Shown here piece after piece: positions 5,694-62,110 of a stretch of DNA of 64,000 nucleotides. The notes below the pieces were generated by a model. It was given only the letters and a program-made list of their open reading frames with translations, was not told the origin of the DNA and did no database searches. Positions within the stretch are counted from its first letter, which is position 1; each line of letters opens with the position of its first letter. Where the stretch lies: NCBI RefSeq assembly GCF_006345805.1, contig NC_043000.1:82522001-82586000 (forward strand). Direction: 5' to 3'. The stretch comes from Octopus sinensis. Its lineage: Eukaryota. Both the position numbers and the translations under genes were made by a program.

Positions 5694-6667
5694 TTACGTT
5701 GGCAACTAAGTTCCCGCCGTTCTTTTTTAATTTAAATTTTTTTTAAGGTTTAATAAAAAAAAATAACAACTAATTAATCAATAATGTATTCACCCAATAA
5801 TGCATCCTCCCAACGTTCAACGGGATTTTCAATACCTTGTTGGTAAAAATCACCCGATTTCGACTCGGAAAATTGATCCAACCAAGCTTTCAATTCTGCA
5901 TCAGTATTGAACGAAGCTCCGCGCATAGCATTTGAAAGAGATCGAAAGAGGTGGAAATCTGTTTGATTCCAAATCAGGAGAGTACGGCGGGTGTGGCAGA
6001 ACTTCCCAGCCATGCGTTTGAATGGCTTCCTTGGTCATATTGGTCATATTGAGGGATGGCGGTGACGAGCAAGCAAACCAGCGGAGATTGTGGCTCATTT
6101 ATTTTTGTTGTTGTCACTTAAAGCATGCGGAACCCATGCTCCGTACTTCTGAACCTTTCCCATTGAATAAAGATGCTTCTCTATAGTAGTGTGGGAGCAT
6201 TCTATTTTCTCTGCTAGTTCCCGTGTCGTTTGACGAGAATTTTCGTGCAAAAGTTGGTTTAATCGCTCTTCATCGAACTCAACTGGACGGCCAGAACTAC
6301 GTGCGTCTTTGAGGTTAAAATTTCCATTTTTTGACTTGGCATACCAATCACGAGCAGTTCTTTCAGCTATGACACCCTCTCCATACACAGCACAATTGTC
6401 ACGAGCAGCTTTTACGGCCTTAGAACCTTGATTAAAAGCAAAAAAGAAGGAGGTGTCGAAAATGCTCGTTTTTCTTAACTTGACATTCCATTTTAATGAT
6501 CTGAAAATAAACAAAAATTAACTAAAATCAACTAGAAAAAAAAAACAAAATAGATTCCAAAATGATTCAAAAATAGAATTCTCGAAAAAAAATAGATTCC
6601 AAAATTTGAATACGCAATAAATTCCAAAATTTAAAAAAAAAACGCGAGAATTTAGTTGCCAACCCAA
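5694..6667 (-). mobile_element. Mariner transposon, internally deleted (~975 bp)
   Basis: TIRs tt(ac/gg)gttggcaactaa(g/a)ttc at both ends. Transposase fragments include an N-terminal HTH (RSSGRPVEFD), WVPHAL and HPPYSPDL. The central catalytic segment is missing at about 6060. Confidence 0.9.
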
Positions 6668-17490: not shown

Positions 17491-18279
17491 GCGTGTGTGT
17501 GTTTGTGTGTCTGCGTCTGTCCCTCTAGCATTGCTTGACAACCGATGCTGGTGTGTTTATGTCCCCGTTACTTAGCGGTTCGGCAAAAGAGACCGATAGA
17601 ATAAGTACTGGGCTTACAAAAGAATAAGTCCCGGGGTCGAATTGCTCGATTAAAGGCGGTACTCCAGCATGGCCGCAGTCATATGACTGAAAGAAGTAAA
17701 AGAGTAAAGAGTATAGGTCACATCTATTGGTTCCAGATCTGTATGGTTTTGTAGTACAAATTAACTCCCATTTAATCGTATAGTCCTTGTTACTGTCCTT
17801 GAAAGACCAGATTAATTTACTAAGACTGGTTAGGAACCTTTTATTTTTGTCTCTAAATGAACTCAAATGATTTGCCGGTCTCCTCTTGAAAATTAATGAT
17901 GCCCCACCGATGTAAAGGAATTCCCTACCTTCAGATGTAACTATACATCTATATATTACATTTTTAGTTTTACACTTATTTTTCACGTTTAGAACAATTG
18001 CAAAGATATCATTTTATATTTCCGTCAGATTTGCTTTCAATTTGATCATTGATTGCAGAATTAAATTCATTTTCACCAAGTTCGGTATTACTATTTACTC
18101 CTTTAGATAACGTTATCTTTGTTCTATTCTAGCTAAACTTTTATTCGAATTGACGTTATTATCTATGTTAAATTAGGTTCTTTCCCTTTCCACATTCTCT
18201 TCTTTTTGAGTTTCTTTATTCCGTTTGATGTTATTATGCTACGAAATTTTTTATTTTCCATCTTAAAAGGAAAATAATG

Positions 18280-19745: not shown

Positions 19746-20118
19746 ATATAAATTTTTCAACTTTATATATATATATATATATAAATTTTTCAACTTTAAT
19801 TCCAAATAACACCAGATTCTTTAATTTAAGTAATCAAAATTTAGAGTTGCATTGATACACCAAAACTGAAAGCAATCTGTGCAAAATTAAAGGGGGCTCA
19901 TTTTGCGAATCAGAACGGCTAGATCTGCGTCGCATTCAATTAAATAATACATAATGAATAATACACACACACACACACATACACACACACACATATATAT
20001 ATATACATATATATATATTTATAAATATGTATGTGTGCATATGTATATATACAGTGCAAACAACATGAAATACGTAGACGAACGAGGGAAAAAGTAGCAA
20101 AATATGTAAACAAGAAAA

Positions 20119-20553
20119 AGATATGTGTGTGTGTGCGTGTGCGCGCGTATGTGAATCCCCACACATATGTATATATCATACCCCACTTCTTTCCTCTAAC
20201 TCCCATTCATATTTATTCCTCTACTGCACCACCTGCGTCAGCAGCGCCATCACCGGGACATATTTCACATCCACTAAACCACGCATACCACACTGTCTCA
20301 TTCATCATTACTACCACCACCTTTATCACACGTATACACACATACACGCCTTGTCAATTCTCGTCTTTAAATCCCAACCCCATCGCTACCCAAACCTGTT
20401 TCGTCCTTTTCTTGGTACACCGCATTGTTGTCCTATCCATTCATACAGTTACACCCCTTCCCTAAACCATGCAAAATCCCCCCCCCTCGACACACGCATG
20501 CATCTCTTCCCGTCACATCTCCGATCACTTCCTGGTTTTCCCACATATGCATA

Positions 20554-20592
<39 letters not shown>

Positions 20593-21168
20593 TATAGATG
20601 TAGTATATACATATACGTATGTATATATGCATACATATATTATTTATATATATATATATATATATACATATAGATGTAGTATATACATATACGTATGTAT
20701 ATATGCATACATATATATTATATATATATATGTGTGTGTGTGTGTGTGCGCGCGTATGTGAATCCCCACACATATGTATATATCATACCCCACTTCTTTC
20801 CTCTAACTCCCATTCATATTTATTCCTCTACTGCACCACCTGCGTCAGCAGCGCCATCACCGGGACATATTTCACATCCACTAAACCACGCATACCACAC
20901 TGTCTCATTCATCATTACTACCACCACCTTTATCACACGTATACACACATACACGCCTTGTCAATTCTCGTCTTTAAATCCCAACCCCATCGCTACCCAA
21001 ACCTGTTTCGTCCTTTTCTTGGTACACCGCATTGTTGTCCTATCCATTCATACAGTTACACCCCTTCCCTAAACCATGCAAAATCCCCCCCCCCCTCGAC
21101 ACACGCATGCATCTCTTCCCGTCACATCTCCGATCACTTCCTGGTTTTCCCACATATGCATATATATG

Positions 21169-23102: not shown

Positions 23103-23151
23103 ATACTGTGTGTGTACATATATAAATATATATAGATCATACACACATATA

Positions 23152-23182
<31 letters not shown>

Positions 23183-23193
23183 ATATATTATAT

Positions 23194-23242
<49 letters not shown>

Positions 23243-23462
23243 CAATAATAATTCTCTAAACGAGGTATAGACAGTAACTGCTCCATAACATAAGGGACGT
23301 TAGCCATCCGAATGTGGCTAGGGACAGGGCAGGGCGGTCTATACCTCGTTTAGAGAATTATTATTGCTGTCGAACAGATTTTCTACATCAGTAAATGTAT
23401 TTACTGTGAAAATCTTTATATAGATAGCCTGCACAGAGAGTCGTTCGTCGAGGGGCGGTGCC

Positions 23463-23515
23463 TGCCATACGTTGACAATAGGCAAACACCTTGAAACCTG
23501 GGTCCGTATGTGGCA
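23463..23515 (+). ncRNA. Type I hammerhead ribozyme with U3-A8 core variant (unit 1)
   Basis: catacg TTGACAA t agg caaaca cct t GAAA cctggGT C cgtatg. 6-bp stem I extendable by tgcc/ggca; GUC cleavage triplet. Confidence 0.75.
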
Positions 23516-23820
23516 TCCGCTTCTTCGGGGAATGATCTCCCTTTGCAGGCTAGAGGACGCCGTGATGGCGTCAGCCCTTCTGGTGAGGTTGATGATCGCC
23601 TGGGGCTAAATGCATCAGTATCACCCCTACCGCCCTGCCCTGTCCCTAGCCACATTCGGATGGCTAACGTCCCTTATGTTATGGAGCAGTTACTGTCTAT
23701 ACCTCGTTTAGAAAATTATTATTGCTGTCGAACAGATTTTCTACATCAGTAAATGTATTTACTGTGAAAATCTTTATATAGATAGCCTGCACAGAGAGTC
23801 GTTCGTCGAGGGGCGGTGCC

Positions 23821-23873
23821 TGCCATACGTTGACAATAGGCAAACACCTTGAAACCTGGGTCCGTATGTGGCA
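23821..23873 (+). ncRNA. Type I hammerhead ribozyme with U3-A8 core variant (unit 2)
   Basis: Identical to 23463-23515. Confidence 0.75.
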
Positions 23874-24036
23874 TCCGCTTCTTCGGGGAATGATCTCCCT
23901 TTGCAGGCTAGAGGACGCCGTGATGACGTCAGCCCTTCTGGTGACGTTGATGATCGCCTGGGGCTAAATGCATCAGTAACACCCCCACCGCCCTGCCCTG
24001 TCCCTAGCCACATTCGGATGGCTAACGTCCCTTATG

Positions 24037-24089
<53 letters not shown>

Positions 24090-24209
24090 TATATAATATA
24101 TATATATATATAATATATATATATATATAATATATATATATATTATATATGTACGTACACACATATATATATGTATATGTATATATGTATATGTATATAT
24201 ATATATATG

Positions 24210-24295
<86 letters not shown>

Positions 24296-26904: not shown

Positions 26905-28536
26905 CACTACCGTCAGAAATTAATTAGCACCCTTGATTTGCTCTTCACTCAAGGTATTTGCTGTCACCTAGTGGCTATATCTCGAACTATTGCTTTGTTG
27001 CGAGTTCACTGTTGCGCAGTACGATGACGTAACTTTGTTTGCAGAGCGGTTTGAGAGTCTACAGCCTAATGATGTTGACCTAGCAGTGCAACAACAACTT
27101 GGGGTGCGGATGCAGACAAATCTTCCTTTGTTTAATAGATATAGGTAGCGCCTCTCAAGGACCGAAATCACACCGTACTAAGTTTTCTCATCGCGTAAGA
27201 CGTTTTGAACAGCTTGTAGGTTAATTGATTTGTGTATTTGCAAGATTTTTTTTCCTCACAAATTCTCCTACACTCTGCTTGGTGACGTCACTTACGGTTC
27301 ACAAAACTTTCTGTTATACATCAAATAAGATGAGAAATTCTGCTTTCTTTCTTTTTTGTTTAGCAGTTTTGTTATAGCATAACATTATTCAAATGAATAG
27401 TTTTAATGAAAATAACTTGTTTTTATCGTTCATTCCTAGATGGGCCCAAGACCTCGCATGACCTTGGAGAGACGGTACAAGGCTCTCTCGTGGCGTGGGA
27501 AGCTGTCGGAGGCTGCAATAGCCAGAAAACTTGGTGTAGCCAGGCGCACAATTCAGTGCTTATTTAAGAAATACGAGGAAACCGGATCAGCAGCTGACAA
27601 AAAGGGTAGGGGACGGAAGTCACTGTACAACCGAAGGGTAACGAGCCGGCAACTGGCGGAGGAGATGCAAAAGATGACAGGGAAGCAGTTGTCTACAACC
27701 ACCATCAAGACCAGATTACTGGAAGCTGGTCTAAAATCCTGTAGGGCCACCCGTAAGCCGCTCCTTACAGCCCAAAACCGGAAGAGGCGGCTGCTCTGGG
27801 CCCGTGCCCACAAGACATGGACCGTGCAGCAGTGGCGGACAGTGATGTTCACTTACGAGTCGCGATTCAGTCTCGTCAGTGACAAGCCTGTCCATGTGCG
27901 ACGCCGCAGGGGTGAGCGCTTCAACAAAGACTGCATTGCTCCCACCATGAAGCAAGGTGGGGGTGGTCTGATGGTGCGAGGGGCGTTCAGCTACAGTGGT
28001 GTTGGGCGGCTCTATGCCGTCGAAGTACGTTGAGATAGTACGGGATACCTCTTTGGTGGCGAGGAGTACTGCTCCAACAGGACAACGCGCCTTCCCACAC
28101 AGCCAAGCTCACAACCGGTTTCTTCAAGGACCATGGGGTGACGGTCATGGACTGGCCTGGCCAGTCACCTGACCTGAACCCTATTGAGAACCTCTGGAGT
28201 CGATTGGGTAGGGATTTGAATGTGCAACAATACAGGAACCGACACGAGCTGTTTGGGGCACTTCTTGCTGCATGGGGGGGCCATCCCTGCACAGTACCTG
28301 CAGGCGCTCATAGACAGCATGCCGACCCGCGTAGCAGCTCTCATTGCTGCCAAAGGAGGAGCAACAAGATATTGACTAAATTTCACGATTAATAACAATT
28401 ATGTGGTGTGCTGGGATATGTTTTAATAAATTTTTGATTAAAAACGAGTTCGTTTCTGATAATAAGTTAATTAAATTAAGAAAATGTAAGAAAATGTAGA
28501 AATTTGAGAAGTGCTAATTAATTTCCGACGCACGTG
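26905..28536 (+). mobile_element. Tc1-like DNA transposon (DD34E), near full-length, inactive
   Basis: TIRs cactaccgtcagaaattaattagcac / gtgctaattaatttccgacgcacgtg; TA TSDs. Confidence 0.92.
27440..28378 (+). pseudogene. Tc1 transposase, frameshifted
   Basis: HTH (IARKLGVARRTI), RKPLLT, WRTVMFT[Y]ESRF, QQDNAPSH...WPGQSPDLNPIENLW. 34 residues lie between D and E. Confidence 0.9.
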
Positions 28537-34177: not shown

Positions 34178-34770
34178 AGGCGCAGGTGGGGTTGTGTGGT
34201 AAGAAGCTTGTGTGGTAAGGCGGCGAGCTGGCAGAAACGTTAGCACGCCGGGTGAAATGCTTAGAGGTATTTCGTCTGCCACTACGTTCTTAGTTCAAAT
34301 TCCGCCGAGGTCGACTTTGCCTTTCATCCTTTCTGGGTCGATTAAATAAGTACCAGTTACGCACTGGGGTCGATATAATCGACTTAATCCGTTTGTCTGT
34401 CCTTGTTTGTCCTCTCTGTGTTTAGCCCCTTGTGGGTAGTAAAGAAATAGGTATTTCGTCTGCCTTTACGTTCTGAGTTCAAATTCCGCCGAGGTCGACT
34501 CTGCCTTTCATCCTTTCGGGGTCGATAAATTAAGTACCAGTTACGCACTAGGGTCGATGTAATCGACTTAATCCATTTGTCTGTCGTTATTTGTCCCCTC
34601 TATGTTTAGCCCCTTGTGGGCAGTAAAGAAATAAGAAGCTTGCTTCCCAACCACATGGTTCGGGTTCATTCCCACTACATGGCACCTTGAGCAAGTGTCT
34701 TCTACTATAGCTTCGGGTTGACCAAAGCCTTGTGAGTGGATTCGGTAGACGGAAACTGAAAAAAACCTGT
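34178..34770 (+). mobile_element. SINE family A 5' half split by a SINE-B insertion
   Basis: Head to 34210 resumes at 34632 with duplicated taagaagcttg. Confidence 0.85.
34219..34632 (+). mobile_element. SINE family B, full copy plus tandem partial copy
   Basis: ggcggcgagctggcagaaacgttagc...gttcaaattcc...tail tttagccccttgtgggcagtaaagaaat. Second unit starts at about 34450. Confidence 0.9.
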
Positions 34771-45021: not shown

Positions 45022-45884
45022 CAGGGAGCAGTGAATAAAATGCCGTCTAAATTACGCAAAAATGAAAATAACACTGACATCTCATTTTAACAGATATATT
45101 TACCAAAATTACATAAAAATATCTTGAAATACAAAAAAGTAAATTATTGAATAAAACTGCCATTGGTTTCAACCACGGCCTCCAGTCGATTTCGGAATCT
45201 CCTGCAACACTTCTGGATGCTCTCCTCGTTTAAGTTGGTGAATGCTGCCATAATCCTTGCCTTCAGTTCATCTTTGGTGTTACAAGGAGTTTTGTTGATC
45301 TCTCGCCCAACTACGCTCCACACGTAATAATCAAGGGGGTTGCAGTCTGGGGATATGGACTGGGGATGTGCTGATGTGGTTGCAGAAATTGTCTGACAGC
45401 CATGACTGGGTTCTCCTGATTGTGTAGAATGGGGCAGGTCCTGTTGCCAGACATAGGGTATTTCAACAGCCACCCACTCGACCCACGGCAGTGCTACCAA
45501 CTCCAGGCACTTGATGTAAGCCTCTGTGTTGAGTCTGAGGCCGTGTGGGAAGATGAATGGAAGCATAAGGTCGCGATCACTAATGATCACTCCAAACGCC
45601 ATGATGTCGACTGTATGTTTAATTTTTATCATTTTCGGTAGATGGCCTCAAATTGACAACGGAACACTGAAATGTTCGTATTGGAGCTACCGGCGTGAAT
45701 GCCAAGCAGTACAGCATGTCGTTTGCAAATTTCTGGCAGAGTGAATTGCGTCATGGTGCTGTTTCTCTCAAAGGCGGTGCCAACTGACCCAATTATATTG
45801 TGTAGTCGACAACATCAAAATCAAGCAATGCGCATGCACGAAATTAATAATACAAAATGGCGACAATTTACCCATCATACCCTG
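45022..45884 (-). mobile_element. Tc1/mariner-superfamily element, maT (DD37D)-like, internally deleted
   Basis: cagggagcagtgaataaa / tttacccatcataccctg termini with TA flanks. Peptide VWQQD...SPDCNPLDYYVW...RLEAVVETNG. Confidence 0.8.
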
Positions 45885-60975: not shown

Positions 60976-62110
60976 ATCAGGTTGTTTCACATGAAATGTG
61001 TTTGAAAGGTAACAATAAAATGCTTCAGAAGTGTTAGAGAACTGATTTATTTAATCAAAGTATGATCCATGTTCATTTATGACGTTTACCCAAAGTTTCT
61101 ACATGTCATATATTCCATCTTAAAAAAAAAAATCATCTTTTGCTGTCCGAATGCTTCATTTACTTCTTCTTTATTTAAGAATGTTTTGTTGCTTATGAAA
61201 AGTTCAAAATGCTTAAATAAGTGATGATCAGTAGGAGAGATATCAGGGGAATAGGGAGGATGTTGCAAAATCTCATAATTCAGGCTTTGTAACTTTTGGA
61301 CTGTAGCTTGAGGAGTGTGAGGACGTGCATTGTTGTGGAGCAAAACTGGGCCATCTCTACTCACTAGTCTGGGTTGCTTATTTTGCAAATTCTCATGCAT
61401 ACAATCAATTTCCTCACAATACGATGTTGCTGTTACCGCTTTTCCTTGTTGCAAAAATGAACAATGAATAACTCCCTTCGCAGACCACCATACAGTGACC
61501 ACTAACTTTTTAGGGTACAATGTAAGGCTTGGTTAGTGTTTAGGTGACTCTCCTGCATCTAATCACTGTCCTGTTCTCCTGCTATTGCCAAAGACTATCC
61601 AGTTTTCATCACAAGTACTGATTTGATGCAAAAATGGTCTTTTCCCAGTCGAGAAAGCAATAACTAGCACACTTCGAGGTGTCTGTGTTTTTTTTTTAAT
61701 CTCGTTCAGTTGATGTGGAACAAACCTCTCTGTTTTCTTGACTTTTTCAATTTTTTGTAGGTGTCCAAAAACAGTTGTTCGAGATGTTTGGAGTCTGATA
61801 AAAGTTTTCGAACCTTTGTTCTGATTTTGTTCAACCAAAGCGTTTAATAACTAATTTTGCCCTACATCTTGGTTTATTTTCAAGGCTATCGTCTCCTGAA
61901 CGAGAGCTTTGGAACCATCTCTGAACAGTTCTGATGTCAGTAAAACATTACCAAAGTCCCGCTTGATATTCCGTCGAGCTTCTGCGACAGAGTGACCCAG
62001 TTTGTACTCGTACGAGAAAATCACTCAACATAGTTTGGTTATCATTTTCGTAAGGGTACGAATTTTGTATACCAATATTGTTGAGAAAGAAAAAGAGTCA
62101 AGATTAAATG
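60976..62110 (-). mobile_element. Mariner transposon relic, frameshifted
   Basis: IFSYEYKLGHSVAEARRNI, FVPHQL, STCDENW, VTVWWS, LLHNNARPH, HPPYSPDISPTDHHLF. One TIR-like end (tcaggttgtttcacatgaaatg). Confidence 0.88.

Follow-up and report, generated by a model that had tools for sequence, protein, structure and literature searches.

A window of 64,000 nt from the Octopus sinensis genome (contig NC_043000.1, positions 82,522,001 to 82,586,000), by which we mean the whole stretch of DNA that was analysed, contains a short array of non-coding units carrying hammerhead motifs and set in a (TA)n microsatellite. The features are given below in window coordinates; ends A and B denote positions 346 and 390 in the numbering of the repeat unit.

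23118..23240, no strand: left (TA)n target microsatellite, from repeat finding
23241..23338, minus strand: inverted arm of 98 nt, unit positions 293-390, with its 3' end at 23241 (fixed end B)
23241-23284, minus strand: 44-nt tail carried by the inverted arm, which ends at fixed end B
23337..23694, plus strand: unit 1, 358 bp, 49% GC, non-coding, sharing 2 nt with the inverted arm at the arm junction
23450..23526, plus strand: hammerhead 1 including the extended stem I, from pattern and folding, with a predicted cut after C23504
23466-71/23505-10, plus strand: stem I of hammerhead 1, CATACG / CGTATG
23472-78, plus strand: core of hammerhead 1, UUGACAA (TTGACAA in DNA)
23480-82/23489-91, plus strand: stem II of hammerhead 1, AGG/CCT over U·U at 10.1-11.1, followed by GAA
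23496-503, plus strand: palindromic stem III of hammerhead 1, ACCTGGGT, with C17 next, at 23504
23505..23862, plus strand: predicted cut-to-cut monomer of 358 nt, as it would be released
23683..23726, plus strand: internal copy of the 44-nt tail, between end A (position 346, 23682) and end B (position 390, 23726)
23695..24040, plus strand: unit 2, 346 bp, terminating at fixed end A
23824..23868, plus strand: hammerhead 2, identical to hammerhead 1, with a predicted cut after C23862
24041..24295, no strand: right (TA)n target microsatellite, from repeat finding

The original prediction of two near-identical 358-bp units was confirmed by TRF, which yielded a tandem repeat of period 358 with 2.0 copies and 98% matches (23337-24040); of the 346 positions that the units share, 5 differ, and the second unit ends at unit position 346. 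The location within (TA)n also holds, with microsatellite on both sides (23118-23241 and 24038-24295 by TRF), as does the 98-bp inverted copy of the unit junction, which is identical to 23629-23726 at 97 of 98 nt. This inverted copy is not incidental and reads as the second cDNA arm of a Penelope-type (PLE) insertion, ending at the tail site. The insertion consists of a 704-nt arm ending at A (24040) and a 98-nt arm ending at B (23241).

Elsewhere in the window, a local duplication with 607-bp spacing occurs at 20104-21010 and a 184-bp two-copy tandem, a SINE-like repeat, at 34265-34633. A short open frame at 17528-18013 (minus strand) is, by motif likeness, what we take to be a GIY-YIG endonuclease fragment of another PLE, and the frames at 27440-28030 (plus strand), 6098-6517, 61089-61532 and 45147-45647 (all minus strand) are presumably Tc1/mariner transposase fragments.

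The unit belongs to a large family. A broad hammerhead pattern applied to the 2.72-Gb genome detected at least 1,346 copies, and the reversed-pattern control none. The genome-wide search with the unit that had been proposed as a check revealed a dispersed family, with 132 scored DNA matches from 40 of 1,320 candidates, and these matches, together with the pattern counts against the empty control, indicate that the hammerhead match is not due to chance. Close subfamilies contribute 121 matches to the exact hammerhead pattern, and a motif taken from public contigs led to a sister subfamily, whose period is 355 bp at an identity of 72-73%, with 198 matches. The superfamily extends over many contigs, with units of 350-362 nt, subfamilies down to 72% identity and no ORF; the search for a conserved long ORF in the unit was also negative. 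Each unit carries one type I hammerhead in a tandem, non-coding repeat within the 150-450-bp range of retrozymes, and the retrozyme-like architecture originally proposed is thereby supported. The predicted window monomer (23505..23862) folds into a closed rod with a circular MFE of -118.9 kcal/mol (z -4.2, 20 shuffles). Nine natural cut-to-cut monomers of 350-362 nt also fold as closed rods or circles, with z values of -2.7 to -6.5 (20 shuffles each), and a tenth locus that was tried yielded no monomer.

Other hammerheads were encountered in the genome. The loci L071-L088 constitute a separate and older family of single copies with a canonical CUGARGA core, stem I UCUCACA/UGUGAGU and a palindrome, ACCUAGGU, that also occurs in the main family; one of them, L075, has two hammerheads 87 nt apart. 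These hammerheads (CUGAGGA...GAAACCUAGGUC) were considered as family members and rejected, their sequence being unrelated. Isolated canonical hammerhead-like motifs with ACGU palindromes, at about 9430 in L152 and about 1569 in L033, are likewise unrelated to the retrozyme family. Two loci about 127 kb apart, L039 and L040, carry one insertion with shared flanks in opposite orientation and, judged from their sequences, represent a segmental duplication or an assembly duplicate.

In both window units the type I hammerhead is as originally described, with stem I, the TTGACAA core, stem II, GAA, stem III and C17 at 23504 and 23862 all in place. Stem I extends into a long helix (23440-23540, z -3.8), and inspection of the sequence shows an internal loop in stem I and a loop II that starts with CAA. 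Throughout the family three helices surround the core, with the open ends in stem I. Covariation was examined in an alignment of 34 natural copies picked to span the subfamilies, in which pairing is 97% for stem I (with 2 double-sided pairs), 91% for stem II and 97% for stem III. When the extension is included, 94.2% of cells are paired and 15 of 30 pairs show a change on both sides, values that are favoured for the outer helices, taken from RNAalifold on the same alignment, and inflated by related rows. Shuffles attained that pair count once in 500, and slid controls paired at 35-51%. The changes in stem I include U-A to C-G and A-U to G-C. The alignment of genomic copies that the original prediction called for thus shows covariation of stem I and its extension and retention of the rest of the core.

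Outside positions 3 and 8 the conserved core nucleotides are present in the family (U4 G5 A6, A9, G12 A13 A14, A15.1-U16.1 and H17), at an apparent conservation that is inflated because many loci were found through hammerhead patterns. Freeing eight core positions (U4, G5, A6, A9 and G12-A15.1) raised the matches to 1,431, with 4 in the control, and scattered core changes were seen in 8 of the first 100 rows of this relaxed search, approximately the level of post-insertion drift. Rfam detected no hammerhead in the window at E<=10 and none in L172 or L229. The blank is not attributable to U3-A8, since L172, a copy with a canonical core, was also missed at the gathering score.

Positions 3 and 8 behave differently. 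The window core carries a Watson-Crick U3-A8 pair, and its exact core recurs in 12 copies. Among 154 aligned segments from 89 loci we found U3-A8 in 72, U3·G8 in 67, C3-G8 in 6, C3·A8 in 7 and others in 2; that is, the pair is Watson-Crick in 78 of the 154, U·G in 67 and C·A in 7. In the first 100 of the 121 close copies, counted by eye, position 3 is invariably U and position 8 is A in 61 and G in 39. Genome-wide, 47 of 1,346 copies have C3, spread over many contigs, 23 of them with G8 and 24 with A8; purines at position 3 occur in five scattered copies and pyrimidines at position 8 in none. In a midpoint-rooted tree, from which we claim no order of events, several clades that span multiple loci are marked by G8 and several by A8. 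The four classes are of the same young age, at 1.1-1.7% divergence from the nearest copy at another locus, and the longest array found (L031) is U3·G8. CpG decay was considered as the sole source of A8 or U7 and rejected; it can yield single copies, but A8 and G8 mark multi-locus clades.

The suggestion that UUGACAA is a double compensatory change is therefore valid for the window copy, but it does not extend to the family, in which positions 3 and 8 do not covary: U3 is mostly kept while position 8 switches between A and G. At best, the sequences indicate a pyrimidine-purine constraint, part of which transition bias may explain. As the pair is kept only to that extent, many subfamilies probably cleave slowly or with assistance. 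The warning that standard CUGANGA searches are blind to this motif was justified, and such screens would overlook about 96% of the octopus copies. The implied novelty of U3-A8 does not stand, as it was already in print for Schistosoma PLE hammerheads and in the work of Perreault et al. (available parts of PMC4209133 and PMC3088659). U10.1·U11.1 had also been reported (available parts of PMC3088659 and PMC7229834), and the available part of PMC7151607 mentions natural U3·G8 only together with a 2-nt insertion, in a halophile.

In 96 of 98 loci the stem III sequence is its own complement, a property that points to a ribozyme acting as a dimer. Thirteen stem III sequences were seen, including ACCGGT, ACCTAGGT, ACCATGGT, ACTATAGT, ACTGCAGT and ACCTGGGT. 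Of eight that were tested by folding, none forms a hairpin alone and all form self-duplexes of -5.5 to -11.4 kcal/mol. The original idea of a dimeric hammerhead gains support from ACCUGGGU, which self-pairs over all 8 nt at -9.8 kcal/mol and lacks a monomer hairpin, and this design has been described for PLEs and newts (available parts of PMC4209133 and PMC6765202). The monomer MFE favours an inactive fold, in which G5-A6-C7 is paired with GUC, more stable than the active secondary structure by 10.7 kcal/mol. Family members have only C or U at position 7, and the inactive G5-A6-Y7/GUC pairing, between alignment columns 43-45 and 74-76, is consequently preserved in all subfamilies, which may keep monomer circles from re-cutting or may reflect transition bias.

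Insertion ends provide a separate line of evidence. When arms are read in the hammerhead sense, their 5' ends are variable and their 3' ends are fixed at A (346) and B (390), 44 nt apart. Among 180 arm ends from 106 non-duplicate loci, 73 are at A, 73 at B and 34 elsewhere, the last being truncated or too diverged for BLAST; 21 duplicate fetches, loci fetched for other families and one nested copy in L135 were left out of this count. TA repeats follow 127 of the 146 classified arm ends. Diverging arms occur at 69 loci, with A+B at 49, A+A and B+B at none, and an unclassified arm at 20, so that the two arms use opposite ends in 49 of 49 classifiable insertions. Arm junctions mostly abut or share a few overlapping bases. 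Copies are dispersed and truncated at the 5' end, and target site duplications longer than 4 bp, readable at four non-TA sites only (L054, L113, L165 and L184), are 11-12 bp in length.

Arms of 3-4.7 units are present, the longest being 1,673 nt, while the median longest arm is 470 nt and 12 of the 106 loci exceed 716 nt. Of 167 arms, 154 cross the cut site, a share inflated by the way in which loci were discovered, and 33 contain at least two cut sites. Only one of the 167 starts at the cut site, against about five expected if starts were uniform; the template is therefore unlikely to have been a linear monomer released by cutting, and either a circle or an uncut multimer is needed.

The involvement of Penelope elements that had been proposed is supported by this combination of a tail between two fixed 3' ends, an inverted 5'-truncated arm and TA microsatellite targeting. 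For the PLE of the anole, two internal reverse-transcription start sites delimit the tail, and AT-rich DNA is cut by the protein on both strands (PMC11167929). By analogy, ends A and B are predicted reverse-transcription start sites, and the simplest reading of the A+B rule is that one event would prime one cDNA at A and another at B, on opposite strands. The available parts of PMC11167929 and PMC8557442, on EN+ PLEs (Poseidon of Anolis, and Neptune and Naiad), describe two start sites bounding a 30-40-bp tail that is often at one end only, an inverted 5'-truncated copy, AT-rich or (TA)n targets, and a hammerhead upstream of the ends, all of which resemble the octopus insertions. The octopus unit differs in having no ORF, a 44-nt tail and a long extended stem I in place of the minimal PLE hammerhead.

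PLE fragments near some retrozyme copies led to three PLE families with long ORFs in the same genome. One of these (L227-L240) is high-copy and very young, its copies being a median 99.7% identical and arranged in units of about 4 kb in tandem, and it encodes the following frame.

L227 5519-8092, minus strand: PLE ORF of 857 aa, RVT_1 E 2.3e-7

The match of its C-terminal part to GIY-YIG, seen in the diverged copies L044 and L012, does not reach the Pfam cut-off. The protein carries a Cx4CxxC linker, which suggests the Neptune group by the available part of PMC8557442. The 3' repeat contains a minimal hammerhead with the core UUGAAAA in 50 of 53 matches and UUGAAGA in 3, a stem III that is mostly ACCGGT and a predicted GUA or GUC cut site. 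Copies of this family terminate in (TA)n at either of two sites separated by 38-40 nt, and their diverging pairs are A+B in 10 of 10 cases (8 by script, 2 by eye). Where copies are in tandem, the tail continues into the start of the following ORF. The end rule, TA target, U3 core and ACCGGT palindrome are thus common to this PLE and the retrozyme. No alignable sequence was found between the unit and the three PLE families: a sensitive blastn with three natural tandem stretches against 50 and 44 PLE loci detected only nested unit copies, and tblastn with the L227 protein gave no match in the window. The young autonomous PLE is therefore a candidate helper by behaviour only. Two further PLE-like families (L145-L164) have open frames up to 1,042-1,120 aa. 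They were rejected as helpers (L145/L149-type), as they share no sequence with the unit and a pattern search located no hammerhead near their ORF ends.

The locus has the sequence-level properties that define a non-LTR retrozyme. It is not an autonomous PLE, and no ORF with RT and GIY-YIG lies in or joins the unit. This reading is based on repeat anatomy, dispersal, covarying RNA structure, a held core, palindromic stem III sequences and the footprint at ends and targets. We consider it probable that the family is a dispersed, protein-free retrozyme whose RNA is predicted to cut itself in the form of a hammerhead dimer, probably becomes circular and is probably copied into (TA)n by a PLE reverse transcriptase-endonuclease. 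A tandem copy would be transcribed on the plus strand, and two hammerheads would dimerise by way of their palindromes and cleave on the 3' side of GUC; the resulting 358-nt rod would be ligated to a circle. A PLE protein, probably a dimer, would then nick both target strands and prime one cDNA from end A and the other from end B. Each cDNA would run back past the cut site, sometimes over several units, and halt at random, and joining of the two truncated 5' ends would generate diverging arms with a tail at one end.

Public data bear on the RNA to a limited degree. None of the public runs recorded as RNA contains the stretch, parts of which are also present in three related species. Most of the unit is represented in contigs from runs presumed to be RNA, although contigs cannot show circles, ends or level, and their depth relative to a neighbouring SINE is lower than in X15, a larger and probably DNA run. 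Differences within loci and to the nearest copy elsewhere (median 3 and 3 of 232 columns) do not separate a circle from a homogeneous multimer as template.

The alternative that survives best, which we regard as unlikely, is a PLE-mobilised non-autonomous element copied from an uncut multimeric transcript, with the hammerhead retained for binding, for folding or for processing that seldom takes place, and without any requirement for a circle. It would accommodate the amplification of all four pyrimidine-purine combinations at positions 3 and 8 and the shortness of most insertions, which are less than two units long. The youth of the C3·A8 mismatch and U3·G8 wobble subfamilies, equal to that of the U3-A8 ones, also counts against the preferred reading. 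Moreover, the anole PLE used mainly uncut RNA in vitro and hammerhead mutants did not block its insertion (PMC11167929), and 8 of 9 predicted Xenopus retrozymes showed no cleavage according to the available part of 10.64898/2026.07.22.740005. However, the remaining core positions and GUC are held across subfamilies only 72% alike and the stem III palindromes covary, both of which would be expected only under selection for dimeric cleavage. Linear copying with 5' truncation would also shorten arrays at each round, yet arms of several units exist.

Much less probable is the view that the unit is the pseudo-LTR of an unfound autonomous PLE and the copies its 5'-truncated remnants. The tail, inverted arm and TA targeting are indeed PLE traits (available part of PMC8557442), but at the loci examined arms longer than one unit continue into another unit and not into coding sequence, and 20 loci inspected together with about 5 kb of sequence to either side have no PLE-type ORF next to the hammerhead. 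Near L002, L012 and L044, the PLE fragments terminate in 3' ends of their own, and either (TA)n or unrelated sequence lies between them and the unit. A minisatellite or DNA-level duplication with a chance or decayed hammerhead match, which the tandem layout, microsatellite setting and lack of an Rfam match might suggest, is the least credible alternative and is already contradicted by dispersal over many contigs, fixed 3' against variable 5' ends, target duplications and RNA-type covariation.

As a retrozyme, the octopus family closely resembles the non-LTR retrozymes of coral, mussel and axolotl, which the available part of PMC7229834 describes as non-coding tandem repeats of 150-450 bp (350-390 in mussel) with one type I hammerhead per unit, GC below 50%, a self-paired fold and larger TSDs. 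In axolotl, HHR_Amex2 shares the U·U at the stem II base with the octopus hammerheads and is more active in dimeric form. Unlike these elements, the octopus family has a core that is mostly U3 with A8 or G8, short arrays, and insertions with a fixed tail and diverging arms; the words 'tail' and 'inverted' do not occur in the main text of PMC7229834. Circles have been demonstrated for the metazoan retrozymes in that paper, whereas the octopus family is known here from DNA. Vertebrate retrozymes (Li, Clavereau, Pollet 2026, 10.64898/2026.07.22.740005) have similar unit sizes and share the proposal of PLE mobilisation, but in the available text this proposal is based on co-occurrence and pLTR homology, while the octopus unit lacks pLTR homology and carries a PLE end signature; that text includes no molluscs. 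Further parallels, within the available parts of the sources, are the U3-A8 variants of Schistosoma Cercyon PLEs (PMC4209133) and Perreault 2011 (PMC3088659) and the short-stem-III dimeric PLE hammerheads (Lunse 2017, per PMC6765202), with U3-A8, palindromic stem III, a need for dimers and a tolerated U10.1·U11.1. There positions 3 and 8 form a covarying pair, whereas the amplified octopus subfamilies include U3·G8 and C3·A8.

The kind of element, a non-LTR retrozyme, and the U3-A8 core are thus already known. We found no description of a retrozyme from a cephalopod, of a U3·G8 or C3·A8 family that had amplified, or of an opposite-end rule in the literature searched, although Lunse 2017 and Przybilski 2007 may list such variants. 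Within that literature, the octopus family adds a PLE insertion footprint on a retrozyme and a strict opposite-end rule that parasite and autonomous element have in common. It also adds a helper candidate open to testing and subfamilies that amplified with all four pyrimidine-purine combinations at positions 3 and 8.

We also put forward, tentatively and as a possibility we would not ourselves bet on, a more general model. A circular RNA parasite with no likeness to its helper would be read by a Neptune-like PLE dimer, its two subunits priming at end A and end B respectively and on opposite target strands, and this would explain PLE tails and inverted arms generally. Its hammerhead would survive repeated loss of the Watson-Crick pair at positions 3 and 8 through dimerisation or rescue by the helper protein.

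Mobilisation of animal retrozymes has so far been argued from co-occurrence and, in frogs, pLTR homology. With a PLE footprint at the insertion ends and a young candidate helper with an 857-aa RT/endonuclease ORF in the same genome, the partnership can be examined in the in vitro assay that exists for PLEs, and a strict opposite-end rule in both retrozyme and autonomous element constrains models of PLE integration. With its four amplified core variants the family offers a natural test of the level of hammerhead activity that a mobile RNA requires and, if rescue of the 3-8 loss proves true, would represent a natural mutational series of the hammerhead core.
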